Positions 8,537 through 35,455 of a stretch of DNA of 51,544 nt are shown here, in pieces (the first letter of the stretch is position 1; each line of letters opens with the position of its first letter). The notes below the pieces were generated by a model. That model saw only the letters and a program-made list of their open reading frames with translations. It was not told the DNA's origin and made no database searches. The stretch comes from a virus. Made by a program: the position numbers and the translations under genes. The stretch lies in IMG/VR virus record IMGVR_UViG_3300011008_000187; one strand, 5' to 3'.

Positions 8537-9625
8537 ATGAGTTTTGAAGCTGCGGAGCTGGCCCTGAAAACCGTTTGCCCCGGCAACGTGTTTTTATATG
8601 ACGACAAGGAAATGCCGTCCACTTTCGTGTACATCCCGAAGTTCCGGCTGTGTGACGTGCTTTCCACGGAGGACACCACCATTCACCCCGCGTTCCGCGT
8701 CGGCGGCGTGGAAATCGACGGGTTCTATTTCGGGAAGTTCCAGACCCATCACTACAACAGCCGGGCCTATTCCCTCCCCGGCGAAGACCCCAGTGCCAAC
8801 GCGACGCTTGACACGTTCGTGGCCTGCGCCCGCGCCAAGGGCGGCAACTTCCACGAGATCACGAATGCGGAGTGGGCCGCCGTCGCGCTCTGGTGCCACA
8901 AGAACGGCACCGAGCCTTACGGCAACAACAACTACGGCAAGGACAGCCGCGAGACGCTTTACAAGGCGATCCCCACCACCAAGAGCAGCGGCCAGACAAA
9001 CCATGTCGCCACCGGCACCGGCCCCATCACTTGGAGCCACGACCGCACGCTGGGCGGCATTTGGGACATGAACGGCAACGTGTCCGAGTGGTGTACCGGC
9101 CTGCGTCTGGTCAAGGGCGAGGTGCAGGTGATCGTTGACAACAACGCCGCCGATCCCACCGCCGACCTGTCCGCCACGTCCGCCGCGTGGATGGCAATTA
9201 ACGCCGCCGCGACCGGCTGGGCCGATCTCTTTATCGAGCCGGACGGCTCCGGCACCACCAGCGGCAGCGTGAAGCTGGATTATGTCAGCAGCAAGTGGAA
9301 GTGGGACACCACCATTTCCTCCAGCTCCGACAGTTCGCGCAACTGCGCGTTCAAGGACATCACCGCCTCTGCCAACATTGGCGACACGGCCAAGCTGCTG
9401 CTGATGGCCCTCGCGCTGCTGCCCGACACCGCCCTGATCGGGGACAACATCGACGCCACCTATGGCGGCGATTACTTCTATGCCAACAATGAGGCAGCGG
9501 AACGGTGCCTCTGTCGCGGCGGCAACTGGCACGGCGGGGCCAACTACGGCGTTTTCTACGCGAACTTGATCATCGCCCGTTCCGACTCCGGCGCGGGCAT
9601 CGGGGGCCGCTCCGCTTCGTATTGA
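8537..9625 (+). CDS. DGR target protein 1 (FGE/C-type-lectin-fold, probable receptor-binding protein) with C-terminal VR
   Basis: The last 39 codons match the TR apart from adenine-site changes. The C-terminus CRGGNWHGGANYGVFYANL..GGRSA is typical of DGR targets. Confidence 0.9.
   Translation: MSFEAAELALKTVCPGNVFLYDDKEMPSTFVYIPKFRLCDVLSTEDTTIHPAFRVGGVEIDGFYFGKFQTHHYNSRAYSLPGEDPSANATLDTFVACARAKGGNFHEITNAEWAAVALWCHKNGTEPYGNNNYGKDSRETLYKAIPTTKSSGQTNHVATGTGPITWSHDRTLGGIWDMNGNVSEWCTGLRLVKGEVQVIVDNNAADPTADLSATSAAWMAINAAATGWADLFIEPDGSGTTSGSVKLDYVSSKWKWDTTISSSSDSSRNCAFKDITASANIGDTAKLLLMALALLPDTALIGDNIDATYGGDYFYANNEAAERCLCRGGNWHGGANYGVFYANLIIARSDSGAGIGGRSASY
9502..9617 (+). repeat. DGR variable repeat VR1
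   Basis: 116 nt aligned without gaps to TR 10174-10289. There are 12 mismatches, and all fall at TR adenines. Confidence 0.9.
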
Positions 9626-9655
9626 TCCACTGTACACTGATCCCTGACGCACTGA

Positions 9656-9677
9656 CTGTCGAGCGATAGCGAGACAG
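9656..9677 (+). promoter_or_regulatory. Post-VR1 hairpin (candidate DGR target-recognition hairpin/cruciform)
   Basis: ctgtc-gagc-gata-gcga-gacag. The same structure follows VR2 with a compensatory base-pair change. Confidence 0.6.
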
Positions 9678-9697
9678 ACGCAACAGGACAATTCCTG

Positions 9698-9752: not shown

Positions 9753-10139
9753 ATGCAGGGAGAGCAGAAGCCGGAGAGCAGCTATAAGCCGTTTGAGGTC
9801 AAGGAGAAAATCGGCGAAATGATCCGCTACGGCAGGCCGCTGACAAAGCAGTTCAGCCGGAAAGACCGCGACCTTGCGGACGAAATGCGGGCGTCTATGC
9901 TGCGGATGTATCACCTTGCCGTGGAGATCGAAAAGAAATACTACCGCAAGACCACCACGCAGGAGCTTGACGTTGAATTGGAATGGCTGCGGCATCTGGT
10001 GAGGATGGCGTCGGACAAGGACTATTGCGGGCCGAAATTCTCCCCGCCCCTTTCCGTTCATCAATACGAGGTGTGGTCAAGGTACAACGCGGAGATCGGC
10101 AACATGCTGGGCGGATATATCAAATCCCTCCAGCGTTAG
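9753..10139 (+). CDS. avd: DGR accessory variability determinant (Avd)
   Basis: 128 aa, basic and helical. Lies between target and TR, the canonical DGR position and size. Confidence 0.8.
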   Translation: MQGEQKPESSYKPFEVKEKIGEMIRYGRPLTKQFSRKDRDLADEMRASMLRMYHLAVEIEKKYYRKTTTQELDVELEWLRHLVRMASDKDYCGPKFSPPLSVHQYEVWSRYNAEIGNMLGGYIKSLQR

Positions 10140-10173: not shown

Positions 10174-10289
10174 ACGGTGCCTCTATCGCGGCGGCAACTG
10201 GAACAACGGGGCCAACAACGGCGTTTTCTACGCGAACTTGAACAACGCCCGTTCCAACTCCAACGCGAACATCGGGGGCCGCTCCGCTT
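10174..10289 (+). repeat. DGR template repeat (TR)
   Basis: Adenine-rich (many AAC codons) copy of VR1 and VR2. Ends in the GC-rich block atcgggggccgctccgctt that is shared by all three repeats. Confidence 0.9.
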
Positions 10290-10472: not shown

Positions 10473-11663
10473 ATGAGCGAGATCACAACGATTGTCAACG
10501 CATGGGCGGTTGTGTGTTGCTTTGGCTGGCTGATCGAGGCGTTTCGGAACGCACGCAAGGGCAAGAGATACCGGGCCGAGGTCATGGCCTTTACCGCGCA
10601 TCTGGAGGATTACCTGCTTATCATTCAGGCGGGCATGATCGCGGGAGACTATGAGCTGGGGCCATATCGCAAGCTGTGGGTATTCGTGCCGAAGAAGCGC
10701 CTCGTTATGGCGCTGCCGTTCCCGGACAGGATCGTGCAATGGAGCCTGTATCTCTATCTCAACCCGATATTCGACAGGCTGATGATCGAGGACAGCTACG
10801 CTTGCAGGAAAGAAAAAGGGAGCCACAAGGCGGCAAAGCGCCTGCAATACTGGATGCGGCAGGTGGACAGGAAGCCGGGGCCGGGATGGTACGTCCTGAA
10901 ACTGGATATATCCAAATACTTCTACCGCATCCATCATGAAAAGCTGCTGGCAATTCTGGCGCGGCGCGTGAAAGACCCGGACATGATGGCATTTCTCCGC
11001 GCTCTGGTGAACAGCCGCGTGGAGCCTTTCGGCTTACCACGCGGGAAGAAGCCGGAGGACATCACGGCGGACGAATGGCTTTACGACGTGGGTATGCCCA
11101 TCGGCAATCTCACGTCGCAGATGTTCGCCAATATCTACCTGAACGAGCTGGATCAGTTTTGCAAGCACAAGCTCAAAATCCATTATTACATCCGCTATAT
11201 GGACGACGTGATTATCATCGGCCCGGACAAGGAAACGCTGAAAGCGTGGAAAGCGAAGATCGAGGCGTTTCTGTGGGACGAGCTGGCGCTTGACCTGAAC
11301 GACAAGACCAGCATCCGGCCTATGCGTCAGGGCGTGGAGTTCGTCGGCCTGCGGATTTGGCCCACGCACATGAAGCTGCGGAAAAGCACCGTGCGGCGGA
11401 TCAAGAACGAGGTGCGCAAATTCAGTGAACGGTATGCCGCTGGAATTTACAGCCGGGAAGAATTTGACCGGCGGATCGCCAGCGTCAGGGGGATGCTGGA
11501 TCATGTGGAGAGTGCGAGCCTGCGCGGACGGCTGAACGAGATTTACCGGGCGGAGCTAAAAAAAGCAGCGGAAAGAAAACTGCGAGAGGAGGCGGAGCAT
11601 GAGCCATTTGCAGATCATCGAAAATCTGGAAATCGTGACGGAGCTGCAAGCAAAGGCGATTAA
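10473..11663 (+). CDS. DGR reverse transcriptase
   Basis: Motifs PFPDRIVQ, IGNLTSQ and YMDD. The ATG at 10473 has AGGAG 12 nt upstream; the ORF-track start at 10419 is less likely. Confidence 0.9.
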   Translation: MSEITTIVNAWAVVCCFGWLIEAFRNARKGKRYRAEVMAFTAHLEDYLLIIQAGMIAGDYELGPYRKLWVFVPKKRLVMALPFPDRIVQWSLYLYLNPIFDRLMIEDSYACRKEKGSHKAAKRLQYWMRQVDRKPGPGWYVLKLDISKYFYRIHHEKLLAILARRVKDPDMMAFLRALVNSRVEPFGLPRGKKPEDITADEWLYDVGMPIGNLTSQMFANIYLNELDQFCKHKLKIHYYIRYMDDVIIIGPDKETLKAWKAKIEAFLWDELALDLNDKTSIRPMRQGVEFVGLRIWPTHMKLRKSTVRRIKNEVRKFSERYAAGIYSREEFDRRIASVRGMLDHVESASLRGRLNEIYRAELKKAAERKLREEAEHEPFADHRKSGNRDGAASKGD

Positions 11664-16738: not shown

Positions 16739-17007
16739 ACAGTATGGATATGGATTTGCGCAATAATGAGCGGGCAAAAGAAATGGCGCGGGAAAGGCGC
16801 TGGACAGCACCGGGGAAATCCCGCGTAGAGCATCCGAAGTATGGCAGCGTCATTGTGCCGCACTGTTCAAACCTCGCCGCCATTGAGAACGCGGCGGAGT
16901 ATTGGGGATGTGACCTTATGGAGATCATCAGCACAGCGGAGTGCTGGGCGTGCGATCAGTCCTTGCCGGTGGTAAGGCCGAAAGAGTTTTGCAAAGGGAT
17001 TAGGTGA
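16735..17007 (+). CDS. Hypothetical protein
   Basis: ORF fills the gap. Start is uncertain (GTG 16735 or ATG 16744). Confidence 0.45.
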   Translation: MNSMDMDLRNNERAKEMARERRWTAPGKSRVEHPKYGSVIVPHCSNLAAIENAAEYWGCDLMEIISTAECWACDQSLPVVRPKEFCKGIR

Positions 17008-18614
17008 AAATGGGAATGGGCAGACAGACGAGCTTTTTTGATGTGCTTTTCGTGGACAGCTTTGCGGGCGGCGGAGGTGCAAGCACCGGCATTGAAATGG
17101 CTACCGGGCACCCTGTAGATATTGCCATCAATCACGACGAAAGCGCCATTATGATGCACAAACGCAATCACCCGTACACAGAGCATTACAGGGAGGATAT
17201 ATGGCAGGTTGACCCGATCAAGGCGACGCACGGCCAGAAAGTCCGCCTCGCGTGGTTCTCACCTGACTGCAAGCATTTCAGCAGAGCAAAGGGAGCGGCC
17301 CTTGTCGATAAGCACATACGCGGCCTTGCGTGGGTAGTCCTCCGCTGGGCGGGGCTGGTACATCCTGACGTTATCATGCTGGAAAACGTGCCGGAGTTCG
17401 TGACGTGGGGGCCGGTGCGTAAGGGAAAGCCCGTCAAAAGCAAAGCAGGACAGACCTATAAAAAGTGGCACAAGCAGCTTTCCGACCTCGGCTATAAGAT
17501 TGAGAGCCGCGAGCTATGCGCGGCGGATTATGGAGCGCCGACCATCAGAACACGCTTTTGCCTGATTGCCAGACGGGACGGAAAGCCGATTGTCTGGCCG
17601 GAACGGACGCACGCCCCGGCTGGAAGCGAAGAAGTGCGGACGGGAAAATGCAGGCCGTGGAGAATGGCGGCGGAGATTATCAACTGGGGGCTGCCCTGCT
17701 ATTCCATCTTTGAGACAAAAGCAGAAATTAAGGAAAAGTTCGGCGTGAACACAGTGCGGCCATTGAAGCCAAACACGATGCGGCGGATCGCGCGGGGGCT
17801 GGATAAGTTCGTTATCAAGACGGCAAGCCCTTTCATCATGTGCAACAACGCCAACAACGTGCCGCATGGACTGGACGAGCCAATGCCGACCATAACAACG
17901 GGAAACAGAAACTTTCTTGTGGCACCGACGCTCATTCAATACCACTCCGAACAACATGAGCGGGAGGCGCGGGGTCAAATCGTCAACGAGCCGCTGCGGA
18001 CGATTGACGCCGCGAACAGGTACGGGCTGACCGTGGCATTTATGCAGAAGTATTTTTCCGGCGTGGACGGTTCAGACCTGCGGAAGCCGGTGCCGACGAT
18101 TACGGCGGTGGATCACAATTCCCTGACAGCGGTACATATAGCAAAATTCAAAGGCACGGACAAGGGGCAGAGCATCCGGGAGCCATTGCAAACTATCACG
18201 GCGAGCGCCGGAGAATTTGCCTTGATAGAGACAACAATACAAAGGTATGCGGAGCAGCAGGGGCTTAAATACTGGCCCCGCGTGCGCGAAATGCTCAATC
18301 AATACTGCGGCTATACGCTGGCGGATGATGAAATACTGCTGTTCGGAATTGCGGATAGCTGGTATTTCATTGCAGACATCGGACTGCGGATGCTCACGCC
18401 GCGCGAGCTGTACGACGCAATGGGATTTCCCCATGACTACATCATAGACCGAGACGTGACCGGGAGGCCAATCAGCCGAGCGGATCAGGTGGCCCGCTGC
18501 GGGAACGCGGTATGCCCGGCGGTGTCGGAGGCAATGGTGCGGGCGAACCTGCCGGAGTGCGCGAAGAAGAAATACGGGAGCATGGACGAGCTGCACGAGG
18601 CTATGGCGGTATAG
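17004..18614 (+). CDS. DNA (cytosine-5)-methyltransferase
   Basis: Motif I FVDSFAGGGGAS, motif IV SPDCKHFS, motif VI ENVPEF and a C-terminal GNAVCP. Confidence 0.85.
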   Translation: MKMGMGRQTSFFDVLFVDSFAGGGGASTGIEMATGHPVDIAINHDESAIMMHKRNHPYTEHYREDIWQVDPIKATHGQKVRLAWFSPDCKHFSRAKGAALVDKHIRGLAWVVLRWAGLVHPDVIMLENVPEFVTWGPVRKGKPVKSKAGQTYKKWHKQLSDLGYKIESRELCAADYGAPTIRTRFCLIARRDGKPIVWPERTHAPAGSEEVRTGKCRPWRMAAEIINWGLPCYSIFETKAEIKEKFGVNTVRPLKPNTMRRIARGLDKFVIKTASPFIMCNNANNVPHGLDEPMPTITTGNRNFLVAPTLIQYHSEQHEREARGQIVNEPLRTIDAANRYGLTVAFMQKYFSGVDGSDLRKPVPTITAVDHNSLTAVHIAKFKGTDKGQSIREPLQTITASAGEFALIETTIQRYAEQQGLKYWPRVREMLNQYCGYTLADDEILLFGIADSWYFIADIGLRMLTPRELYDAMGFPHDYIIDRDVTGRPISRADQVARCGNAVCPAVSEAMVRANLPECAKKKYGSMDELHEAMAV

Positions 18615-18623
18615 GAGAACAAA

Positions 18624-18833
18624 ATGAAAATCATTGACCTTGTGGGTAGGCTTGAAGCTCTTGAAAAACGAGCGGGCACAGAGGGATGGGGCGGCGAGTA
18701 CCGGGAAGAACTGTTCGATACGATGCTGCACTATTTCAAACTGCATCGGGGCCGCACTTCTGCGGGAGGCCTGATGGCCTTTCTAATCGAGCAATCAGAA
18801 AAATGGTTTTCGGGGAGGAATGGAAATGTCTGA
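18624..18833 (+). CDS. Hypothetical protein
   Basis: RBS TAGGAG. 69 aa. Confidence 0.5.
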   Translation: MKIIDLVGRLEALEKRAGTEGWGGEYREELFDTMLHYFKLHRGRTSAGGLMAFLIEQSEKWFSGRNGNV

Positions 18834-19023
18834 ATTGAAGCCGTGCCCGTTCTGCGGGAATGAGTGGCCGACGATCACACAGAACTATTATTCGGCGGCG
18901 TGGGAAATCCGCTGCCCGCAATGCGACATTGTTTTCCGCCTTGGAGCGGGAGAGAAAGAACGTATCAGGGAGAGGATCGTCAGTGCTTGGAACAGCAGGA
19001 GGATGGTCAATGCTGAAAAGTGA
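18820..19023 (+). CDS. lar: Lar-family restriction alleviation protein (zinc ribbon)
   Basis: LKPCPFCG ... CPQC ... AWNSRR matches the Lar pattern. Confidence 0.65.
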   Translation: MEMSELKPCPFCGNEWPTITQNYYSAAWEIRCPQCDIVFRLGAGEKERIRERIVSAWNSRRMVNAEK

Positions 19024-19324
19024 TGCTATGCAGGAGGTTTCCGAGGCGTTTGCCGCCGCCGGAGTGTCGGCGGAGCAGGCGGCGGATGCCGCGCAGGAGT
19101 TGGCGGACGCGGCGAAAAAGGCGCTGCCGGAGATAAAGCCACCAAAACAGAAGCGTGAGAAGCCCCGGCGGATCGTGGAGCGGTGCGCCTGTGCGATCTG
19201 CCACAGTAGCCGCGTCACGCTCCTGAAACGGGAGGGCGCTTACGTCTGCGGGCCGTGCTACCGCAAACTGCTGACGCTGCGGGCGCTGGAAAAGCAGCAG
19301 CAGAAAGAGCGGGCGGAGATATGA
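19010..19324 (+). CDS. Hypothetical zinc-ribbon protein
   Basis: ATG at 19010 after AGGAGGA. CACAIC...CGPC motif. Confidence 0.5.
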   Translation: MLKSDAMQEVSEAFAAAGVSAEQAADAAQELADAAKKALPEIKPPKQKREKPRRIVERCACAICHSSRVTLLKREGAYVCGPCYRKLLTLRALEKQQQKERAEI

Positions 19325-19497
19325 ACAGAGAGTTTATCACAGCACTTCGGGCGTTGGTATCTGCCGCAAACTCTCTGCGTTATAACCCGGAAATAGAGCC
19401 AAACGACGCGGCAATGTATGAGGTTTACGTTCTCAAAGTGAAAGCGTGGCTTGAAGAACACCCGGAGATCATGGGGGCGTGTGGCAATGGGATATAG
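19321..19497 (+). CDS. Hypothetical protein (58 aa)
   Basis: The ATG overlaps the previous stop (ATATGA). Confidence 0.4.
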   Translation: MNREFITALRALVSAANSLRYNPEIEPNDAAMYEVYVLKVKAWLEEHPEIMGACGNGI

Positions 19498-19571
19498 GCG
19501 CGTGGGCTACCTTGAACAGCTCTTTTATATCCTGAAATACCTCGCCACGCGGCGGAAAGGATGGGCAAAGA

Positions 19572-20354
19572 ATGGGAGACAAAACGAAAATTGAATGGGC
19601 GGAGGCGACGTGGAACCCCGTCACCGGCTGCCTGCATGGGTGCGAATACTGCTACGCCCAGCGGATCGCGGAGCGGTTCAGGGGCGGCTTTGGCGTCGGC
19701 GGCATCCACGACCTGAAAGAACCGTTACGGATCGCGTGGAGAGACAGCGACACGCGGGAGCTTGTCGAGGGCAGAAAAGAGCCGTACCCGTTCGGATTTG
19801 CGCCGACATTCCACCGCTACCGGCTGGACATTCCGGCCCGCTGGACGAAGCCGCGCACAATCTTTGTCTGCTCCATGGCTGACCTGTTCGGGCGCTGGGT
19901 GCCGACAAAGTGGATCATGGACGTGTTCGACGCTTGCAGGGCCGCGCCGCAGCACCGCTATTTATTCCTGACAAAGAACACGGACAGATACATGGAGCTG
20001 GACTATATGGCCCTGCTGCCGCACATGGAAAACTTCTGGTATGGCACCAGCGTGACGAGCAACGCGGCGGCTATTCCCTACCCCGGAAACCTTGAGGGCC
20101 GCATCAATACCTTTTGGAGCATGGAGCCATTGCTTGGCCCGGTCGATATGAGCGAAGCAAAGGGCGTGCCGGGCTGGGTGATCCTTGGGGCGGAAACGGG
20201 AAACCGGCGGGACAAGGTGAGGCCACGCAAGAATTGGATCGACAGCATTGTGACGTTTTGCGACGCGCACGGCGTTCCAGTGCTGATGAAAGACAGTCTG
20301 ATCCCCATTGTGGGAGCGGAGAATATGCGGAGGGATTTTCCGTGGGCAACATGA
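19572..20354 (+). CDS. Phage Gp37/Gp68-family protein (DUF5131, CxxxCxxC)
   Basis: The N-terminus TKIEWAEATWNPVTGCLHGCEYCYA is the family signature. Confidence 0.8.
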   Translation: MGDKTKIEWAEATWNPVTGCLHGCEYCYAQRIAERFRGGFGVGGIHDLKEPLRIAWRDSDTRELVEGRKEPYPFGFAPTFHRYRLDIPARWTKPRTIFVCSMADLFGRWVPTKWIMDVFDACRAAPQHRYLFLTKNTDRYMELDYMALLPHMENFWYGTSVTSNAAAIPYPGNLEGRINTFWSMEPLLGPVDMSEAKGVPGWVILGAETGNRRDKVRPRKNWIDSIVTFCDAHGVPVLMKDSLIPIVGAENMRRDFPWAT

Positions 20355-20950
20355 AAGACAGAATTGATTATCTGGACTATATCGAAGCACAGACAAAGAC
20401 GGACAAAGCCTTGCAGGAGCGGGAGGCGGACTGCGCCGCGCGGGAGGAAAAGTTCATGGCCGTGATGGGCAGGCACGCGCCCGGCACGTTGCTGGTATTC
20501 CTGCGGGAAAGCGGCTTCTTTGACGCGCCCGCCAGCATCAAATACCACGGAGCGCATGACGGCGGCCTGTTTGAACACTCATACGCGGTCATGACGGTGC
20601 TGGCCGATCTGACACAGCGGCTTGATCTCCATTGGGAGCGGGAGCGCAGCCCGTACATCGTCGGGATGTTCCACGATCTTTGCAAGACGGACGATTACCG
20701 GCGCGGCGTCGGCGGCAAGTGGGAGTACAACAAAGCGCCGCTGATGCCGGGGCACGGGGAAAAGTCCGTGATCCTGCTGTCGCAGTTTATCACGCTGACG
20801 GAGGAGGAAATGCTCTGCATCCGCTGGCACATGGGCGCGTTCGATGAAAAAGAGCTGTGGAACCATTACGGGCGGGCCTGCGAGAAATACCCGAATGTGC
20901 TTTACACGCATACGGCGGACATGATCGCGTCGCGGATCATGGGGGTGTAG
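20351..20950 (+). CDS. HD-domain phosphohydrolase
   Basis: H..HS ... FHDLCK ... HG...WHMG pattern. The ATG overlaps the upstream stop. Confidence 0.65.
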   Translation: MKDRIDYLDYIEAQTKTDKALQEREADCAAREEKFMAVMGRHAPGTLLVFLRESGFFDAPASIKYHGAHDGGLFEHSYAVMTVLADLTQRLDLHWERERSPYIVGMFHDLCKTDDYRRGVGGKWEYNKAPLMPGHGEKSVILLSQFITLTEEEMLCIRWHMGAFDEKELWNHYGRACEKYPNVLYTHTADMIASRIMGV

Positions 20951-20953
20951 CGG

Positions 20954-21670
20954 GTGCTGGAATTAAACCGCTGCTACAACATGGATTGCATGGAGGGTAT
21001 GGCGCAATTCCCGGACGGATTTTTCGATCTGGCCGTGGTCGATCCGCCGTATGGCGGAGCGGGCGGAGACTTCAAGCGCAGCGATAAGTCACGGTTCGGC
21101 GGGCGGTTCGATCAGTACAAGCCCGGAAATGCTGCGGGGGGGTACTCTGAAAGCGGCATTTACAGAACCGGCGGCGGATGGGCGAGGCAGTACGCCAAAA
21201 AAATCATTGGCTGGGATCATGCGCCCGGCCCGGAGTATTTCAAAGAGCTTTTCCGAGTGAGCAAGCAGCAAATCATATGGGGCGGGAATTACTTTGACCT
21301 GCCGCCAAACCGCTGCTTTATCGTCTGGAATAAAACGAACATCCCGGAAAACTTCTCAATGGCTATGGCGGAATACGCATGGTGCAGCTTCAACGACAAC
21401 GCAAAGATCGTGGCTTGCAGTTCCGCCAGAAAAGGCGAGTGCTATCACCCAACGCAAAAGCCGGTGGCGCTCTACACATGGATTTTTCAGACCTACGCCA
21501 AGGCGGGCGATAAAATCCTCGACACCCATTTGGGGAGCGGGAGCAGCCGGATTGCGGCATATGAGGCCGCGCTGGATTTCGTGGGCTTTGAGATCGACCC
21601 GGACTATTTCAAGACAGAAGAAGAACGGTTCAGGGAACACACAAGCCAAGTGAGCTTGTTCCATCTATAA
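20954..21670 (+). CDS. DNA N6-adenine/N4-cytosine methyltransferase (beta class)
   Basis: DPPYG motif, HPTQKP, and LDTHLGSGSS AdoMet motif. Confidence 0.85.
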   Translation: MLELNRCYNMDCMEGMAQFPDGFFDLAVVDPPYGGAGGDFKRSDKSRFGGRFDQYKPGNAAGGYSESGIYRTGGGWARQYAKKIIGWDHAPGPEYFKELFRVSKQQIIWGGNYFDLPPNRCFIVWNKTNIPENFSMAMAEYAWCSFNDNAKIVACSSARKGECYHPTQKPVALYTWIFQTYAKAGDKILDTHLGSGSSRIAAYEAALDFVGFEIDPDYFKTEEERFREHTSQVSLFHL

Positions 21671-21689
21671 AAATGCAGGAGGCAAGGGC

Positions 21690-22274
21690 ATGGACAACAG
21701 AGAACCGACAATCGTGAAAGTGCGAGATATGTGTATGCGCGGCGCGTTCCGGGCGTATGCACAGGGCGAGGACGTTTATCTGGAGGACACAAAAACAACC
21801 TGCGTGGTGAAGCTAAACGGAGCGGACGAGCCAGAGCCGGAGCGCCGGGAGCTGATGCCGCCGGACTTCCCCGCCCGCGCACGGGAACACGCCGCCCGGC
21901 AGCAGACGCCGCACGGCGGGAGAACGGCGCGGATGTTCGGCGCGGAGCAGAAACCGCAGCGCAGGGACTTCCGCGACGACGAGGGGCCTTACAAGGGCTT
22001 TCTCATGGTCAAGTGCGAGGAGTGCGGAGCGGTCAAGGCGTTCTGCGCGAAGCGGGAAACCTACGGCTTTAAGTGCGACGAGTGCGGGGCGCAAACGCCG
22101 CTTGAAAAGCTGCGGCCCATGTTCATGCGCTGCAAGTGCGGCAAGGAGTTCCGCTATAAAACCAACCTGACGGACAAGCGCGTGACGCATACCTGCATTT
22201 CCTGTCATGCGCCCGTGGATATGGAGCTGAACCGGCGGGAAACCGCCTATGTGACCATCGAAGAAAGGGGTTAA
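21690..22274 (+). CDS. Hypothetical multi-zinc-ribbon protein
   Basis: Several CxxC pairs (CEECG, CDECG, CKCG, CISC). RBS is GCAGGAGG. Confidence 0.55.
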   Translation: MDNREPTIVKVRDMCMRGAFRAYAQGEDVYLEDTKTTCVVKLNGADEPEPERRELMPPDFPARAREHAARQQTPHGGRTARMFGAEQKPQRRDFRDDEGPYKGFLMVKCEECGAVKAFCAKRETYGFKCDECGAQTPLEKLRPMFMRCKCGKEFRYKTNLTDKRVTHTCISCHAPVDMELNRRETAYVTIEERG

Positions 22275-22278
22275 GGAC

Positions 22279-23475
22279 ATGGCAAAGGTACGCTATACCT
22301 ATTTCGGCCTCGGCATGGCAGCGGAGGGATCGGAGAAGTTCGCGGCGGATCAGGCGGCGGCTTTTCTGGCCTACGCCGAGCGGGACAGCATCAGGAGCGT
22401 GGCGGCGGATGCACCGGCGGAGGTGCCCGTGCCGCTGACGGAGCCGGAGCGGGTGCCCGGCGGAATGGAACACGACGTTGTGGCGATCTACGACAACGCC
22501 GGTATTCCGTCCATCATGCACCGCTTCCGCAGGATCACCGACAAGGAGCTGTTCGGCGGGAGCGACAAGGTACATCCGGCCTTTATCATCGGCGGCGAGG
22601 TCTATGACGAGATTTTTATATCCGTCTATCAGAACACCATGATAAACGGCAAGCCTTACAGCCTGCCCATGGCGGAGCCGGTTTACAACATCACGCAGGA
22701 CGATTTTGCGGAAGCCTGTTTCTCCAAAGGCGAGGGCTGGCATTGCATCACCGCGCCGGAATGGGGCCTACTGGCGGACACCTGCGCCATGCTGGGCACG
22801 ATGCCGCACGGGAACACGAATTGCGGGAAGTGGCACGGAGACGACGCGGAAACGGGCGTGCTGATCGGAGGAGGCCCCAAGACGCTGACCGGGAGCGGCC
22901 CGGCGACGTGGACGCACAACCACAAGCCAACCGGCGTGCATGATCTGTGCAGCAATCTGTATGAGCATTGCCGGGGCGCACGGATCAAGGACGGCGCTTT
23001 GCAGGCGGCGGAGAACAACGACGCCGCGCTGCCGGAAACCGACCTGTCCGAGAACGGCGACGGCTGGCGGCCCATCGTGGACGACACCGGGCGGCCCCTG
23101 TTCGTCTCCGTGGACGGCGGGAAAATCACCATCACGCCGGATCAGGAGATCGAGCGGGACTATAACGGCTGCCGCTGGGCGGACGTGACCGTGGAAAGCG
23201 AGAGCGAACAGCTCAAAGAGCTTGCTTTCTTTGCCGGGGAGCCGGACGCCTATTGCTTCATGGACAGCACCGAGGGCGAGTATGTCCTCTATCGCGGCGG
23301 CAGCTGGGCCGGCGGGGCCGGCAGCGGCGTTTTCTGCGCGGCCTTGGGCAGCCCGCGCTCCTACTCCAACGCGGTCATCGGGGGCCGCTCCGCTTATTTC
23401 AGGAAGCACAGCACACTGAACCCTGACACACTGACCGTCGAGCGGGAGCGAGACGGAAAGGAGGCCGGGGCATGA
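22279..23475 (+). CDS. DGR target protein 2 (paralogue of target 1) with near-C-terminal VR2
   Basis: Central region is paralogous to 8537-9625 (HPAF..GG, ITAPEWG). The C-terminus YRGGSWAGGAGSGVFCAAL..IGGRSA aligns to the TR. Confidence 0.85.
   Translation: MAKVRYTYFGLGMAAEGSEKFAADQAAAFLAYAERDSIRSVAADAPAEVPVPLTEPERVPGGMEHDVVAIYDNAGIPSIMHRFRRITDKELFGGSDKVHPAFIIGGEVYDEIFISVYQNTMINGKPYSLPMAEPVYNITQDDFAEACFSKGEGWHCITAPEWGLLADTCAMLGTMPHGNTNCGKWHGDDAETGVLIGGGPKTLTGSGPATWTHNHKPTGVHDLCSNLYEHCRGARIKDGALQAAENNDAALPETDLSENGDGWRPIVDDTGRPLFVSVDGGKITITPDQEIERDYNGCRWADVTVESESEQLKELAFFAGEPDAYCFMDSTEGEYVLYRGGSWAGGAGSGVFCAALGSPRSYSNAVIGGRSAYFRKHSTLNPDTLTVERERDGKEAGA
23286..23395 (+). repeat. DGR variable repeat VR2 (remote)
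   Basis: 110 nt aligned without gaps to TR 10180-10289. There are 17 mismatches at TR adenines and 3 at non-adenine positions (gcc cgt in TR versus ccg cgc in VR2). Confidence 0.8.
23435..23456 (+). promoter_or_regulatory. Post-VR2 hairpin (counterpart of 9656-9677)
   Basis: ccgtc-gagc-ggga-gcga-gacgg. The T-A pair of the VR1 hairpin is replaced here by C-G. Confidence 0.6.
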
Positions 23476-24131
23476 AGCTGTCAAGATTTGCGAAGCTGGT
23501 CAAGCAGGGCGGGATCGTGTACCTGTGCCACGTCACGGGAAGCGGCATATGGCTGGGCGCACGCACGGGCTTTTACCGGGCGGACGGCCTGCCGGAAACG
23601 GTGGACGAGGCGACGATCCTCACCATTCTGGACTTCGACACCAAGACGCAGGAAAAGATCGTCGTGCGGGAGCTGGATTTTGACAGCGACAGGCAGATGT
23701 TCGGCATGAATTTGAGCGACGACGGCACGCCGGACATCGAAGCCAAAAAGATTTCCGTCGCGGCGGTTTATAAGGGCACCTTTGCCACGGCGCTGCTGTG
23801 CGACGACGGCGAGCTGGTTTTCTATGATGAAGCGCAGCTCTCCCCACTGGCCGATGTGTTCAAGGAAAGCGACTATGTGCGGACGGTGGTGCGTGTCAAC
23901 GACAGCGGCGGCAGATATGTGGTGATCCGAAACGGCTTTGAAACCGTGGCCGGGATCATGCCCATGCGCATTGTCAGCAAGGAATTTTTGGGCGATCTCT
24001 CCGATTTTCAGGCCAGATGCACAGAGCAGTATTTCCGAGAAGAAAGCCGCAAGGCGGCGCTGGCGGCTGTGCAGGCGGCGGAAAGCGGCGAGCAAACGAG
24101 CTTGGAGGATGCGCAAGGAGAAAAGACATGA
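23472..24131 (+). CDS. Hypothetical protein
   Basis: 219 aa. Start overlaps the target 2 stop. Confidence 0.55.
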   Translation: MKLSRFAKLVKQGGIVYLCHVTGSGIWLGARTGFYRADGLPETVDEATILTILDFDTKTQEKIVVRELDFDSDRQMFGMNLSDDGTPDIEAKKISVAAVYKGTFATALLCDDGELVFYDEAQLSPLADVFKESDYVRTVVRVNDSGGRYVVIRNGFETVAGIMPMRIVSKEFLGDLSDFQARCTEQYFREESRKAALAAVQAAESGEQTSLEDAQGEKT

Positions 24132-24406
24132 AACCGATAAACAATGCCCGCATAAAGCAGGCAGGAATATACCTTGCGCGAGCAAAACGGCAACAAGATA
24201 TAGCAAACAGAAATACGAACAAGCTGTTTGAATTTCTTGAAGCCTGCGGGCTGGACGATTTAGAGAAGTTCGGAACCGATGCAGAAAATTCGAGCAATCT
24301 AAAAGAGGCCATATGTTGCTATATCGACTACGGAGAATACTCGGAGGAGGGGCTTCTCGCAGAGATAGGAACAGCATTGGAAATGATGGACGAACAGAGG
24401 GCATGA
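24128..24406 (+). CDS. Hypothetical protein (92 aa)
   Basis: ATGA overlap with the previous gene. Confidence 0.5.
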   Translation: MKPINNARIKQAGIYLARAKRQQDIANRNTNKLFEFLEACGLDDLEKFGTDAENSSNLKEAICCYIDYGEYSEEGLLAEIGTALEMMDEQRA

Positions 24407-24409
24407 ACG

Positions 24410-24754
24410 ATGAAGATTGAGCGAGCTATCGAAATTCTTGATCCAGAACACCGGGAGCCTTACGACGGGCTGGAGGAGGTCAACGAAGCGTGCCGCATGG
24501 GTATGGAAGCCCTGCGGATCATGCGGGCCGTGACGGACAAGACACTGGCGCCGCTGTCCCGTTCCCTGCGGGCGGCGGAGGACATGATGCGCCGGGAAAT
24601 CTACACGCACGGACACCGCGCCGCGATCAGCACGGCGGCGGAGGTGCTGGAACGACTGGAAAAGCTGTGCCATGAGATCGCCGAGGACGCGCCCGGCGAT
24701 AACGTCCTGTACTTTGACGACGCCCGCCGGAGCGGGCTACTGGAGGATGATTGA
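24410..24754 (+). CDS. Hypothetical protein
   Basis: 114 aa, tightly packed between neighbours. Confidence 0.5.
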   Translation: MKIERAIEILDPEHREPYDGLEEVNEACRMGMEALRIMRAVTDKTLAPLSRSLRAAEDMMRREIYTHGHRAAISTAAEVLERLEKLCHEIAEDAPGDNVLYFDDARRSGLLEDD

Positions 24755-24757
24755 GCT

Positions 24758-25360
24758 ATGCAAGCTGCGCTTTTCGCCGTGCGCCCGGGGTGGTGCCGAA
24801 AGATCGCAACGAGAGAAAAGACCATCGAGGTGCGAAAAACCGCGCCGAAGCTGCCGACGCCATATAAGGGCTATTTGTACTGCACAAAGCGCCAAAAGCC
24901 TGCGCTTATCAACCTCCAAAACCTGCCGGAAACGCCGTACATCATCACAGCCGGGGATCATTCGAGGAAATACGAAGTGCCGGATATGGATTGGGCGAGA
25001 CTGTGCAACGGCAAGGTATGGGCGGAGTTCATATGTGACACAGACCTGCCACTGCTGTTTGAGTGCAGCGATCCGGCGGCGCTGGTCACGCATTACGAAG
25101 TGCCGGGCACCTGCCTTTCGGACGTGGAGATCATGGACTACCTCGGCAACGGGAAAGAGGGCCACGGCCTGCATATCTCCGAGTTGACCATCTACGACAA
25201 GCCGCGCGAGCTATCCGAGTTCCGGCGCGTGTGCGTGAACGGGCTGTACTGCGAGAGCTGCGCCATGTACAACGCGCATACAGAAATCTGCGGGAACGCG
25301 GCGCTTTATCTGCGCCGCCCGCCGCAAAGCTGGTGCTACGTCGAGGAAATACGGCCATGA
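24758..25360 (+). CDS. ASCH-domain-like protein
   Basis: The N-terminus ..FAVRPGWCRKIATREKTIEVRK resembles the ASCH beta-barrel start. Confidence 0.45.
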   Translation: MQAALFAVRPGWCRKIATREKTIEVRKTAPKLPTPYKGYLYCTKRQKPALINLQNLPETPYIITAGDHSRKYEVPDMDWARLCNGKVWAEFICDTDLPLLFECSDPAALVTHYEVPGTCLSDVEIMDYLGNGKEGHGLHISELTIYDKPRELSEFRRVCVNGLYCESCAMYNAHTEICGNAALYLRRPPQSWCYVEEIRP

Positions 25361-25557
25361 TCGAGCGGTTTTACAACAACTATACGCCGGTCTGCGACTA
25401 CTGCGGAAAGCGCCTGCCGGGAGAAATGAGCTTCCGGGACGCGCTGCGGGCCATGTGGGATGCCGGATGGGAGAGCAGAGGGCGAGACGGCGAGCGGCTT
25501 TGTGTCTGCAACGACTGTCTTTTTGAAGAAAAAGGGTACGGTAACGGGCCGCAATAG
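25357..25557 (+). CDS. Hypothetical zinc-ribbon protein (66 aa)
   Basis: CDYCG ... CVCNDC. ATGA overlap with the previous gene. Confidence 0.45.
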   Translation: MIERFYNNYTPVCDYCGKRLPGEMSFRDALRAMWDAGWESRGRDGERLCVCNDCLFEEKGYGNGPQ

Positions 25558-25765
25558 CAAAGGAAATAAGCCGGGTTCAGGGGCAAAACGCCCCTGCCCG
25601 GCGCAGCCATCGGAAAAGAAAACGCCGCCAAGCGCGGCGTATGGGCTGGTATATCACTCTTAATTTAAGGGACAAGGGAGCGGGAACCGTGCCCGCACGT
25701 CCATGAAGAAAATCTCTTTCGTTCTCTCTCGGAAAGGGAGAAAGCCGGAAAGAGATAGGGGGTTT

Positions 25766-25838
25766 GGGGGAAAGGGAAAGGTGGCTTTCTCTTTAAGCCC
25801 GCCCGGAGGCGGGCGCTCTTTGGCTTTCCCTTTCCCCC
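25766..25838. promoter_or_regulatory. Large imperfect palindrome upstream of rep (candidate origin / nick-site hairpin)
   Basis: gggggaaagggaaag ... ctttccctttccccc are 15-bp perfect arms enclosing an inner hairpin gcccgcc cgga ggcgggc. Confidence 0.5.
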
Positions 25839-25882
25839 AAGAGGTCACGAGCAGCGGCAAGGTCAATTCAGGGGGTGGAGCT

Positions 25883-26737
25883 GTGTCAACAATCTACTGG
25901 CGGGAACAGAAACATATCTGCGGGAAAGACTACGACACCGCCCCGTACATGGAGGTTGATCTCTATGCCGTCAGCCCGCAGAAGCACAGAGCATCCGCAC
26001 GGGCCAAGCGACGGGAAGCCAGCAGCCTTGCCCAGCAGCGATATAACGAGAGCCGGGCGAAACGCTATCACGTCCAGCTTGTCAACACGAATTTCCACAA
26101 GGGGGATTTTTCGTGGACGGGGACATACGACGACGATCACCTGCCTGCGCCGGGAGACAAGGAGCGGGCCGACAAGGATTTCACCAACTACATGAAGCGC
26201 GTTTACCGCTGGTGCGATAAGCACGGAACCGCCCGCCCGAAATGGGTCATGGCGACGGAGTACAGCACAGTGCAGGAGGACGGCAGCACCGTGGGCCGCC
26301 ACCATCACCACGCAATCATCGAACATACCGAGGGCTTGACACGGGATATTCTGGAGGAGCTATGGAGTGAGCGCGGGCAGCGCATCGGACTGACGCGCTG
26401 CGAATATCTGGACGTGGATCACGGAAGCGTGGAAAGCCTCGTGAAATATATCAGCAAGAACAAACGGTGCGCCCGGAGCTGGCGGCAGAGCCGGGGCCTT
26501 GAAAAACCAAAAACGCCCCGCCCGAATGATACGAAGTGGAGCCGCAAAAAGGTGGAGGAGGCCAGCACCATGTACATAGACGACGCAGCCTATTGGGAAA
26601 AGCAATATCCGGGCTACACCCTGAACCGCGTGGAAACAAAAGTCAGCGACGCGGGCCTGCGCCATACGGTTGTCATTCTCCGACGGGCGGAGGCGTGGCA
26701 CGGATCGCCGGGCAGAAAGCGAGGGCGGGCCTCATGA
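25883..26737 (+). CDS. HUH rolling-circle replication initiator (Rep)
   Basis: The three RCR motifs occur in order: FSWTGTY, RHHHHAIIE (HUH) and VKYISKN (YxxK). The GTG at 25883 follows GGGGGTGGAG; the ORF-track extension to 25703 is probably non-coding. Confidence 0.6.
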   Translation: MSTIYWREQKHICGKDYDTAPYMEVDLYAVSPQKHRASARAKRREASSLAQQRYNESRAKRYHVQLVNTNFHKGDFSWTGTYDDDHLPAPGDKERADKDFTNYMKRVYRWCDKHGTARPKWVMATEYSTVQEDGSTVGRHHHHAIIEHTEGLTRDILEELWSERGQRIGLTRCEYLDVDHGSVESLVKYISKNKRCARSWRQSRGLEKPKTPRPNDTKWSRKKVEEASTMYIDDAAYWEKQYPGYTLNRVETKVSDAGLRHTVVILRRAEAWHGSPGRKRGRAS

Positions 26738-31421: not shown

Positions 31422-31446
31422 TTCGTGATCCTCCTGTTTTGGTTTT

Positions 31447-31512
31447 GGCCTGCCATCATCGGCGGCGGGCGGCCATTCCCGCCGGACGGAGCCGGGCGGC
31501 CCCGTTTCGGCT
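31447..31512 (-). repeat. Structured intergenic repeat, copy 1
   Basis: 66 bp, differing from copy 3 at 1 position. Contains two GC-rich hairpins. Confidence 0.8.
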
Positions 31513-32432: not shown

Positions 32433-32997
32433 GGTGTAAACCTCCTGTTTTGGTTTTGGTGTTTGGCCTGCCATCATCAGCGCCGGGAGGCCAGTTCCGG
32501 CGGACGGGCCGCGCGGCCCGTTTCGGCTCCGTGCGGGAGAGCGGCGCGGCGGGCGTCTCGGTGGCCTGCTCCGGCGCGGCCTGCTCCATCACGGGAGCGG
32601 GAGCGACGGCGGGCGTTTCGTCGCTTCCCTGCTCCACCGGCGCGGCGGGCGTGGTGCCCACGCTGCCGGTTTCGTCGTCGCTGCCGTCGGTGCGCCTGAC
32701 CTGCGAAACGTGGAACAGGTGCGACAGCTTTTTGTAATAATGCGGATCGTCGGGCAGCTCCTCCCCGGCGGCCTCCGCCGCTTCCCGCAGGGCCTTGGCC
32801 GGGCGCGTCGTGTATTTCCAGAGGTCAACGTGAAGCATGGCCTTTTCGCCCTTTTTCACGCTGTAGCCGCGGGCTTTCCACTCTTGGAACGTGTGCAGCG
32901 GGATCATGTGCCCGGAGGCAAGGATCGCGTTTACCTGCTCCTCGGTGTAAATGCCCTGTTCAACGGCGGCACTGCAAATGATTTCGTTGTTTGTCAT
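32263..32997 (-). CDS. ArdC-N-like (ssDNA-binding/antirestriction-type) domain protein; 3' end doubtful
   Basis: N-terminal ..IPLHTFQEWKARGYSVKKGEKA.. resembles the ArdC N-domain. The ORF has no stop before repeat copy 2 and runs 170 nt into the next gene. Confidence 0.45.
   Translation of the reverse strand: MTNNEIICSAAVEQGIYTEEQVNAILASGHMIPLHTFQEWKARGYSVKKGEKAMLHVDLWKYTTRPAKALREAAEAAGEELPDDPHYYKKLSHLFHVSQVRRTDGSDDETGSVGTTPAAPVEQGSDETPAVAPAPVMEQAAPEQATETPAAPLSRTEPKRAARPVRRNWPPGADDGRPNTKTKTGGLHHAELLRNRRTDRTQGAGGVFHERLQARQRNGGIPRRRGRGRRDCRAAQEARQPVLS
32465..32528 (-). repeat. Structured intergenic repeat, copy 2 (diverged)
   Basis: Same architecture as copies 1 and 3, with a compensatory G-C to C-G change in hairpin A. 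Confidence 0.7.
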
Positions 32998-33031
32998 GGT
33001 GATAACCTCCCGTTAAAAATTCGTTGTGTTT

Positions 33032-33097
33032 GGCCTGCCATCATCGGCGGCGGGCGGCCATTCCCGCCGGACGGGGCCGGGCGGCCCCGTTTCGGCT
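33032..33097 (-). repeat. Structured intergenic repeat, copy 3
   Basis: 66 bp, differing from copy 1 at 1 position. Confidence 0.8.
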
Positions 33098-34793: not shown

Positions 34794-34926
34794 GTGCCTT
34801 TTTTCGGCGGCGTTTTTCGTGGCGGCGTTTTCTGTGGCCGCTGGGGGGCTGGGGGGAGATTATATATAACTATCCGGGGAATAGACCGCGCGCATAAAAC
34901 CCTTTCGCCGCGCCTCGGCAGGCCGC

Positions 34927-35036
34927 CAGCAGGCCAGCAGAGCAGGCCGCCAGCACCACCACCGGCGGCACCGGCAGAGCAGGCCAGCGGCACCACCACC
35001 GACAGCAGGCCAGCAGAGCAGGCCGCCAGCACCACC
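34927..35036. repeat. Direct repeat: perfect 34-mer twice (34927-34960, 35003-35036) with a degenerate copy between
   Basis: cagcaggccagcagagcaggccgccagcaccacc occurs twice, 76 bp apart. Confidence 0.8.
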
Positions 35037-35063
35037 GCCGACACCACCAGCAGACCAGCCCAA

Positions 35064-35205
35064 CACGCCCGCGCTCGCGCGAAATTCCAAACACGCGCCC
35101 GCCCGCGCCAGCGACGCGCCCGCGATCCAGACAACGCACGCATCCGCGCGATATTCTAAACGCGCCTGCGCCCGCGCGATCCAAAACGCGCCCGCGCCCG
35201 CGCGT
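35064..35205. repeat. Array of ACGCGCC(C/T)GCG GC-boxes separated by A-rich spacers
   Basis: ACGCGCC occurs at 35093, 35114, 35160 and 35186, and also at 34740. Spacers include gaaattccaaac, gatattctaaac and gatccaaaac. Confidence 0.65.
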
Positions 35206-35455
35206 AATAGGTTCTGCGCGTGCGCGTGCGTGTATTGCGGGTTCGGAAGCGCAAAAATTTGTTAGGTGTGAGGTGGTTTTCTCGCTTCCGGCGGGGCCGG
35301 GCCGGAAAATATAGGGGGGTCAAAAAACGCCGGAGCGGGCGAAAACGGGAGCCGAGGGACGCCGAGCGGGGCCGAAGATGGGAGCGGGAGCCGCCGGGCG
35401 GCACTGAAAATGGGAAAGCTGGGAGGAAAAGTGGGAGCAGCGGCGCGGCGGAACC

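Follow-up and report, generated by a model that had tools for sequence, protein, structure and literature searches.

Why should one of the two targets written by a single diversity-generating retroelement (DGR) differ from its template at positions other than adenines? This question is raised by the IMG/VR virus record IMGVR_UViG_3300011008_000187, a stretch of 51,544 nucleotides (nt) which was analysed at its full length and is referred to here as the window. It contains a DGR cassette composed of the accessory gene avd, a template repeat (TR) and a reverse transcriptase (RT) gene, together with one variable repeat (VR1) in the adjoining gene, target 1, and a second variable repeat (VR2) in a remote gene, target 2. 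VR2 departs from the TR at many adenines, but also at three positions that are not adenines. In our reading, the TR has mutated, VR1 has been rewritten since, and VR2, itself a working target, was last rewritten before the mutation; jointly with the view that the window represents the complete genome of a Lagaffe-like temperate gut myophage with one DGR (avd-TR-RT), we give this explanation a probability of roughly 0.8.

In the ungapped comparison of VR2 (23286-23395) with the TR (10180-10289), adenines of the TR are replaced at 17 positions (A>G at 13, A>C and A>T at 2 each), and exactly three other positions differ, namely TR 10247 (G>C), 10249 (C>G) and 10252 (T>C). All three are located in the two codons at 23353-23358, which, in the frame of the coding sequence 22279-23475, read CCG CGC (Pro-Arg) in VR2 versus GCC CGT (Ala-Arg) in the TR; the substitution counts and the codon pair given by a first-pass annotation, made from the sequence alone, are hereby reproduced. 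That annotation had also allowed that the three differences might be an artefact of alignment. Since the alignment is free of gaps, they are not, and a compensating pair of insertions and deletions was likewise rejected, because the ungapped alignment and the existence of a one-step intermediate, CCG CGT, speak for substitutions. A second TR serving VR2 was rejected as well, the TR of the window being the only one in the closed genome: over the whole window there is a single repeat family with three copies (VR1, 9502-9617; TR, 10174-10289; VR2, 23280-23395), and no further TR or VR copy was found in the closed 51-kb circle. When the VR2 region was compared with the window by BLAST, it matched VR1 with an E-value of 1e-38 and the TR with one of 3e-27, and the homology to the TR begins 6 nt later in VR2 than in VR1. 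VR2 shares its genome with a complete cognate cassette (Avd, TR and RT). A distance of 13.0 kb separates it from the TR, and the target 2 gene starts 10.6 kb past the end of the RT gene.

The origin of the codon pair can be traced through the TRs of related phages, which were recovered by exact-pattern scans and from contigs encoding an identical Avd or the small intermediate gene. CCG CGC is the TR sequence in eight strain-level relatives (L033, L052 and L054-L059, 96-99% identical to the window) and in outgroups at 88% (L026) and 65% identity (L031 and L022). CCG CGT is the TR allele of L053, and GCC CGT is restricted to L044 and the window, of which L042, L043 and L051 are duplicate assemblies. 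Judged from this distribution, CCG CGC is ancestral for the phage species, the window TR having been derived from it via the sampled intermediate CCG CGT. The genome with the intermediate (L053 for TR and VR1, L061 for VR2; Logan SRR16606026 contig 84789) carries it in both of its VRs, so the stepwise path from CCG CGC to GCC CGT has been sampled in nature. Among the readings offered by the first-pass annotation was that VR2 may record an older TR sequence, and it is this one that the relatives bear out: most sister genomes, and the outgroups too, have the codon pair of VR2 in their TRs, and it is the TR of the window that is derived.

Agreement between template and targets prevails elsewhere. 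VR1 has no non-adenine mismatch to its own TR in 11 of 12 genomes, and VR2 matches its own TR in ERZ27256870 (L052/L041, CCG CGC), in SRR16606026 (L053/L061, CCG CGT) and in SRR17284434 (L044, GCC CGT). In an 85% identical relative from the metagenome Ga0208297 (L025/L035), VR2 contains every lineage-specific non-adenine change of the TR (TTTTCGCGCTG...AATGGCCGCACG). The first-pass annotation had proposed to check whether homologous phages keep the difference between GCC CGT and CCG CGC; a mismatch between TR and VR2 at this codon pair is seen in the window only, the four others being concordant. Alone in disagreeing with its own TR, the window VR2 has no non-adenine difference at all from the ancestral TR, and the share of the differences located at TR adenines rises from 17/20 against the window TR to 17/17 against the ancestral allele. 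The gene around it was compared too. In the body of the target 2 gene, the window and L044 differ at 6 of 1007 nt, and the window and the other genomes at approximately 20. At 22683-22984, the window shares derived single-nucleotide polymorphisms (SNPs) with L044 and no other genome, and at 23519 and 23522 with both L044 and L045. By these markers, the gene body flanking the window VR2 belongs to the GCC CGT lineage.

Variation among relatives also bears on the question of whether VR2 is still being written. The protein cluster of target 2 has 13 members at 90% identity or more, from independent metagenomes, in which residues 1-337 and 368-398 are nearly invariant and variation is found almost only at 338-367. 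The many-valued residues (338, 342, 344, 345, 348, 349, 353, 355, 357, 358, 362, 364, 366 and 367) correspond to A-containing codons of the TR, the variable residues sitting on AAC, TAC and ATC codons. One protein, P0128, does not differ from that of the window anywhere outside VR2, but differs at 12 residues inside it, and reads Ala-Arg, the derived TR state. For strain-level relatives, the mean pairwise difference per 110 nt amounts to 19.2 in VR2 and 17.8 in VR1 (six VR2 DNA sequences were read, five of which entered the pairwise comparison), so VR2 has been diversified as strongly as VR1; this is the opposite of an invariant VR2 beside a varying VR1, by which the first-pass annotation would have known a dead target. 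These observations argue for VR2 as a live DGR target and not a decaying one.

Some further features of the variation deserve mention. Across all VRs, 143 of the 234 adenine substitutions are A>G, an excess which fits the preferential misincorporation of C by the RT in vivo, reported for a reconstituted DGR (PMC12875486). Six adenine sites at 23336-23358 of the window VR2 (TGC GCG GCC TTG GGC AGC) have the states also found in VR1 of the unrelated genome L060, and the VR2 of L044 has part of this pattern; the recurrence may be due either to the strong A>G bias or to selection. The T at TR position 10184, next to the 5'-most adenine (10185) and 4 nt inside the 5' edge of the homology between VR2 and TR, is altered in several VR2s (to G in L061 and to C in L035, while P0124 has an Ala codon) and unchanged in every VR1, and such changes could arise when the 5' cDNA junction is resolved, or by misextension past a mismatch. 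On a larger scale, some clusters of target-2 homologues at 90% identity hold thousands of sequences (P0017, 14370; P0118, 4071; P0105, 2957), as expected if DGR diversification multiplies the distinct proteins of a lineage.

The mechanism that we envisage is the one known for DGRs in general. The TR would be transcribed and then copied by the RT, which errs opposite adenines, into a cDNA that would replace any sequence provided with TR homology, a GC-rich 3' block and a downstream hairpin; since VR2 possesses all of these, it would be a live target. One DGR would in this manner rewrite two paralogous C-type-lectin (CLec)/FGE-fold proteins, the first adjacent to the cassette and the second 13 kb off. 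Meanwhile, as the comparison with relatives shows, the TR itself has changed within the species from CCG CGC to CCG CGT and on to GCC CGT. Complete homing would copy the non-adenine TR positions faithfully, so that each VR would bear the TR allele of its last rewrite. In the reconstituted DGR, programmed non-adenine markers in the TR were indeed incorporated at 100% efficiency (PMC12875486), and a match at non-A sites is the accepted criterion for the assignment of a VR to its TR (PMC10907252). In the sister genomes L044 and P0128, VR2 would already have been rewritten after the TR change. The three non-adenine differences would then be a time-stamp, neither damage nor the sign of another mechanism.

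Several points weigh against this explanation. The VRs are identical in all three assemblies of this phage, and the activity of VR2 is deduced from relatives and not from population reads. The contigs L025 and L035 are separate contigs of one metagenome and were assumed to be one genome, and the TR allele of the P0128 genome is deduced from its VR2 only. Moreover, the stretch from 16.9 to 20.9 kb is a mosaic in these genomes, so that some horizontal history may be involved.

The rival that survives best, although we consider it quite unlikely, is partial homing, in which the current TR was homed into the 3' segment of VR2 only, with the tract ending before the codon pair. Marker coconversion in the Bordetella phage BPP-1, where integration at the 5' end of the cDNA needs only short homology of at least 8 bp (PMC3240598), makes tracts shorter than a VR mechanistically possible, and the 43 nt located 3' of the codon pair, having adenine-site differences only, are compatible with such an event. 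Nevertheless, the 5' part of VR2 must even then pre-date the TR change, which means that partial homing would supplement the delayed rewriting of VR2 without replacing it. Full-length tracts are also usual at this target, as the VR2s of four other genomes bear the non-adenine alleles of their own TRs at or 5' of the codon pair, and we found no positive sign of a recent event restricted to the 3' end. Partial homing, to which the first-pass annotation had pointed, is thus possible for those 43 nt and not needed to explain the data.

It is very unlikely, in our estimation, that VR2 came from another genome, either by homing in trans of cDNA from a relative with a CCG CGC TR or as a short patch of recombination or gene conversion from the VR2 of such a relative. 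The components of DGRs do act in trans (PMC5758913, PMC10907252), relatives with a CCG CGC TR outnumber the others, different strains are found together in gut samples, and the genomes of these phages are mosaic. However, the SNPs on both sides of VR2 tie the gene to the GCC CGT lineage and would restrict any patch to less than about 500 nt; the window VR2 is identical to no other sampled VR2 or VR1; and a transfer requires an extra event, whereas vertical retention requires none. A chimeric assembly, in which the VR2 path of one co-occurring strain was joined to the TR and VR1 of another via graph bubbles in the hypervariable region, is highly improbable. VRs are known to complicate assembly (PMC5883640), and as VR2 is separated from the nearest lineage-diagnostic SNPs by about 300 nt on its upstream side and about 125 nt on its downstream side, a change of strain within a short-read graph would be possible there; yet the same VR1, TR and VR2 are present in three assemblies (the window, JGI 3300011005 and ENA ERZ3810914), both flanks of VR2 are of one lineage, and the exact protein is encoded on two contigs. 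A decaying or dead target, no longer homed in this lineage and gathering ordinary mutations, is hardly credible: the imbalance of three non-adenine mismatches in VR2 and none in VR1, to which Dulem virus 37 adds four in VR2 and one in VR1, would suit decay, but the three differences together give precisely a known TR allele, unlike random decay, the target 2 open reading frame (ORF) is intact with cis-elements identical to those of the updated sister genome L044, the isogenic protein P0128 has a rewritten VR2, VR2 is as diverse as VR1 and tracks TR changes in four other genomes, and the orthologue group of target 2 is conserved across genera.

The cis-elements 3' of the VRs agree with the claim of the first-pass annotation that VR2 keeps the GC-rich 3' block and the downstream hairpin, the block being identical and the hairpin predicted. 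This block (CATCGGGGGCCGCTCCGCTT), which resembles the initiation of mutagenic homing (IMH) sequence, is the same in TR, VR1 and VR2, and the sequences diverge directly after it. Downstream of both VRs, and absent after the TR, follows a 51-nt block, 84% identical between its two copies (9628-9678 for VR1). Its first part is an array of three or four (A)CTG(A) repeats with a 7-8 nt period, its second part a hairpin with a GRNA loop (Table 1). The predicted stem has 5+2 bp, broken by tandem G-A. One stem pair is altered on both sides between the VR1 and VR2 copies (T-A to C-G), and a second such pair is found in L031. The folding energies of the hairpins alone are not significant (z -0.65 and -1.06), and the spacing of about 38 nt between VR and hairpin is slightly above the published range of 4-34 bp. 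The hairpin call accordingly stands on conservation and paired stem changes and not on energy; as a predicted element, it would fall into the known class of DGR target elements described in PMC3240598. Between the window and L044, neither the repeats nor the hairpin 3' of VR2 show any difference.

The repeat array is the less familiar part. Its triple-repeat pattern is found at only two sites in the 51-kb genome, downstream of VR1 and of VR2 (the second at 23416), where 0.03-0.08 would be expected. Arrays of three to five A(A/T)CTG repeats together with a GRNA hairpin are also seen at VR1 of Dulem virus 37 (L001, after 24269), at the target 2 orthologues in L013-L016 and L020, at the target 2-like gene of Clostridium phage Saumur and in Bacillus phage BalMu-1; positions listed for the array include L063 1363-1400 and L064 1283-1310. 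In phage Lagaffe (L002), the repeats follow both VRs (22563 and 32706), the hairpin after VR1 has a non-GRNA loop, and no hairpin was identified after VR2. The A(A/T)CTG(A/G) array, with three to five repeats at a 7-8 nt period, is thus conserved from Oscillospiraceae phages to BalMu-1, and never follows the TR in the window or in the listed relatives. No description of it was found in the DGR literature searched, and we propose it as a candidate target-recognition element. At target 2, array and hairpin encode the C-terminal tail of the protein (YFRKHSTLNPDTLTVERERDGKEAGA, 23396-23472), the same elements being non-coding at target 1; this tail, predicted to be disordered, may exist only because the cis-element falls inside the ORF.

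As the first-pass annotation had stated, the product of CDS 22279-23475 is a paralogue of target 1 (32% identity, E 2e-39). The BLASTP alignment starts at residue 68 of target 2, which has about 65 N-terminal residues and a 24-residue C-terminal tail in excess of target 1. Both proteins match phrog_2889 (4e-105 for target 1, 5e-86 for target 2). Target 1 gives a weak FGE-sulfatase match of 22.7 bits, just below the cut-off of 23.3 bits, and target 2 itself has no Pfam match at E<=0.01, PF03781 being recorded for many of its homologues. The best relative of known structure is the variable protein TaqVP (5VF4), recovered for target 2 by phmmer at 3e-26 and by Foldseek at E 3e-21 with a template modelling (TM) score of 0.64-0.67 over about 370 columns. 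These matches suggest that target 2 is a CLec/FGE-fold DGR variable protein in which the VR would form a C-terminal ligand-binding surface. Its AlphaFold model (mean pLDDT 70.6) consists of a beta-hairpin and helix at residues 1-41 (pLDDT 67-84), a Pro-rich linker of low confidence (42-62), the CLec/FGE domain and a disordered C-terminal tail. The VR loop region is of low confidence, with pLDDT <50 for residues 336-361.

The location of target 2 had been called unusual, the gene lying among DNA-modification and replication genes and not in the tail module, so that its protein need not be a receptor-binding protein of the virion. A virion-anchoring domain, which the first-pass annotation proposed to look for by structure prediction, is not present in the target 2 model, and Foldseek gave no structural match besides TaqVP; target 1 is likewise without an anchoring domain, although it is situated in the tail module, which makes this a weak test of presence in the virion. 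One might imagine target 2 as a non-virion, DGR-diversified binding protein of the cytoplasm, made with the early or lysogeny-proximal genes and recognising, for example, a variable factor of the host or of a competitor phage, but we regard this as unlikely. Compatible with it are the place of the gene among methylase, Lar and replication genes, conserved across genera, its tight packing with its neighbours, an N-terminus that is not visibly hydrophobic (no signal-peptide predictor being used) and an N-terminal module without counterpart in the tail paralogue.

The unusual location itself is real, since target 2 does lie among methylase and replication genes, but it is not peculiar to this phage, being conserved in Lagaffe, Dulem virus 37 and Saumur. 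By tblastn, targets 1 and 2 form separate orthologue groups, with identities of 48% and 60%, respectively, in Dulem virus 37, 53% (gp26) and 41% (gp40) in Lagaffe, and 59% and 63% in L009; in L010, where the locus stops short of target 1, target 2 is 63% identical. Target 1 always adjoins avd-TR-RT, whereas target 2 lies 6-10 kb from the RT gene or past the 10-kb flanks in 15 of 15 loci. The annotated surroundings in three other phages are as follows: gp40 of Lagaffe is located after an IS30-type integrase and before exonuclease, Gam, ERF, SSB and replication genes; the orthologue in Dulem virus 37 is accompanied by methyltransferase, helix-turn-helix (HTH) and Lar genes; and the target 2-like gene of Saumur is situated between a PAPS reductase and a replication initiator. 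The remote arrangement is therefore old and conserved, a further argument for function. A conserved partner gene beside target 2 was considered and dropped, the flanking ORFs not being homologous to those beside Lagaffe gp40. As for the searches made, window positions 20000-26000 found no match in the phage collection by megablast, the target-2 protein retrieved from IMG/VR only relatives at 57% identity or less, an exact IMG/VR scan for the 3' flank of VR2 found no match, and an IMG/VR search with the C5-methylase gene found loci, none of which spans the cassette.

The window is a closed circular contig, positions 1-99 being identical to 51446-51544, and its + strand holds nearly all of the long ORFs. 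Gene functions come from the precomputed Pfam matches of the corresponding genes in other assemblies or loci of this phage. The tail part reads tape measure, P2 GpU, gp25-like, baseplate J, P2-I tail protein, three small ORFs and target 1, the last of which opens the cassette of target 1, bAvd, TR and RVT_1. The RT gene is followed by a holin, an amidase, an rve (IS30-type) integrase, an HTH protein and a cell-wall hydrolase; a C5 DNA methylase, Lar, DUF5131, an HD-like protein, an N6/N4 methylase and a 194-aa ORF come before target 2, and four small ORFs and a REP_ORF2-G2P replication initiator after it. Target 2 starts 4 nt past the end of the upstream ORF, and its stop overlaps the start of the next (ATGA). 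Pfam and PHROGs searches gave no function for the flanking ORFs, and a scan for promoters and terminators around target 2 gave no convincing signal.

Table 1. Coordinates of the DGR components and associated elements in the window.
Feature	Position	Strand	Remarks
Target 1	8537..9625	+	362 aa; cassette-adjacent DGR variable protein; after baseplate J/P2-I genes and three small ORFs
VR1	9502..9617	+	12 adenine and 0 non-adenine substitutions versus TR; derived GCC CGT allele
Four (A)CTG(A) repeats	9629..9655	+	9629-32, 9636-40, 9644-47, 9651-55; between VR1 and hairpin
VR1 hairpin	9656..9677	+	CTGTC-GA-GC-GATA-GC-GA-GACAG; predicted fold; GRNA-type loop GATA
avd accessory gene	9753..10139	+	128 aa; PF22296 bAvd recorded for identical protein
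TR	10174..10289	+	Between avd and RT gene; 26 adenines
Derived TR allele GCC CGT	10247..10252	+	From TR comparison among relatives
DGR reverse transcriptase	10473..11663	+	396 aa; PF00078 RVT_1 recorded for same gene in L042 and L051
Target 2	22279..23475	+	398 aa; remote DGR variable protein
N-terminal extension without counterpart in target 1	22279..22464	+	AlphaFold; BLASTP versus target 1
VR2	23286..23395	+	17 adenine and 3 non-adenine substitutions versus window TR; 0 non-adenine versus ancestral TR allele
CCG CGC, ancestral TR allele kept in VR2	23353..23358	+	From TR comparison among relatives
Three (A)CTG(A) repeats	23415..23434	+	23415-19, 23423-26, 23430-34; within coding sequence, encode part of C-terminal tail
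VR2 hairpin	23435..23456	+	CCGTC-GA-GC-GGGA-GC-GA-GACGG; predicted fold; GRNA loop GGGA

Three other regions of the genome drew our attention. Compared with L041, L044, L052 and L062, positions 16950-20950 form a mosaic block of methylase and anti-restriction genes between the hydrolase and the N6/N4 methylase genes in strains that are 96-99% identical elsewhere, and the C5 methylase is swapped for other ORFs in some of them; the block marks a hot spot of recombination on the immediate upstream side of target 2. Beyond the replication genes, where relatives carry minus-strand ORFs, three copies of a 74-nt direct repeat span 1.6 kb (31439-31512, 32457-32530 and 33024-33097), two of them 96% identical. 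Finally, 34923-35231 is dense in short direct repeats, with a 64-nt unit present twice at 88% identity and then a CGCGC-rich 44-nt unit present four times, and could be an origin or a regulatory region.

Among known systems, the DGR of phage Lagaffe (Cornuault et al. 2018, PMC5883640) is the most similar in layout, with baseplate J/I, three small ORFs, target 1, avd, TR, RT, lysis genes, an IS30-type integrase and target 2 before the replication genes, and with gp26 and gp40 as the orthologues of targets 1 and 2. A report of 2024 (PMC11792537) described its second VR as well as variation of both VRs across 18 cognate genomes, and a remote second target is hence not new. The window differs from Lagaffe in that no DNA similarity was detected in the megablast search of 20000-26000 and in the non-homologous neighbours of target 2. 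In Lagaffe both VRs differ from the TR at adenines only, so with no non-adenine mismatch in VR2 a lag behind the TR is invisible there. Dulem virus 37 (PP511443.1), an unclassified member of Caudoviricetes from lemur faeces, has the same two-target layout and the closest annotated orthologue of target 2 (60%); in this phage "CalU17 biosynthetic pathway protein" is all that the annotation of the targets says, and VR2 (35257-35368; TR 24809-24923, VR1 24155-24269) shows 4 non-adenine mismatches. At one of its TR positions the three copies all differ, with G in the TR, A in VR1 and T in VR2, which suggests that an AAC codon of an older TR mutated to GAC after both VRs had last been written, and would make a second case of TR drift outrunning the targets.

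The DGR of BPP-1, with its variable protein Mtd (PMC3240598), shares with the window the adenine-specific transfer from TR to VR, a VR at the 3' end of a gene for a C-type-lectin-fold protein, a GC-rich 3' end of the VR, and a GC-rich hairpin with a 4-nt GRNA loop after the VR and not after the TR. It has a single adjacent target, however, and its hairpin is 4 bp from the VR, whereas here about 38 bp intervene, filled with the (A)CTG(A) repeats, and the element of target 2 lies inside the coding sequence. TaqVP of Thermus aquaticus (PDB 5VF4), the best match of target 2 by both sequence and fold, is only 27% identical and stems from a bacterial chromosomal DGR. In the survey of Wu et al. (PMC5758913), phage DGRs with one adjacent and one non-adjacent target inside the prophage were common, and non-A-to-N substitutions were found in 23% of DGRs. 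The survey explained such differences by an unfaithful RT, by errors of integration or by independent mutation; here, in contrast, the population comparison assigns them to a change of the TR and a lag at one of the two targets.

A DGR with two targets and a remote second VR is therefore of an ordinary and known kind, which happens to be unusually well documented here. What the case adds concerns the non-adenine mismatches, which are often read as RT infidelity or as the mark of a dying target and which act here as a natural marker experiment. It displays the stepwise evolution of a TR, with complete homing copying the new allele into both targets, and indicates that one DGR updates its two targets independently of each other and at different times. 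Pipelines which drop VRs with a few non-adenine mismatches would miss live targets, and those same mismatches can be used to order homing events.

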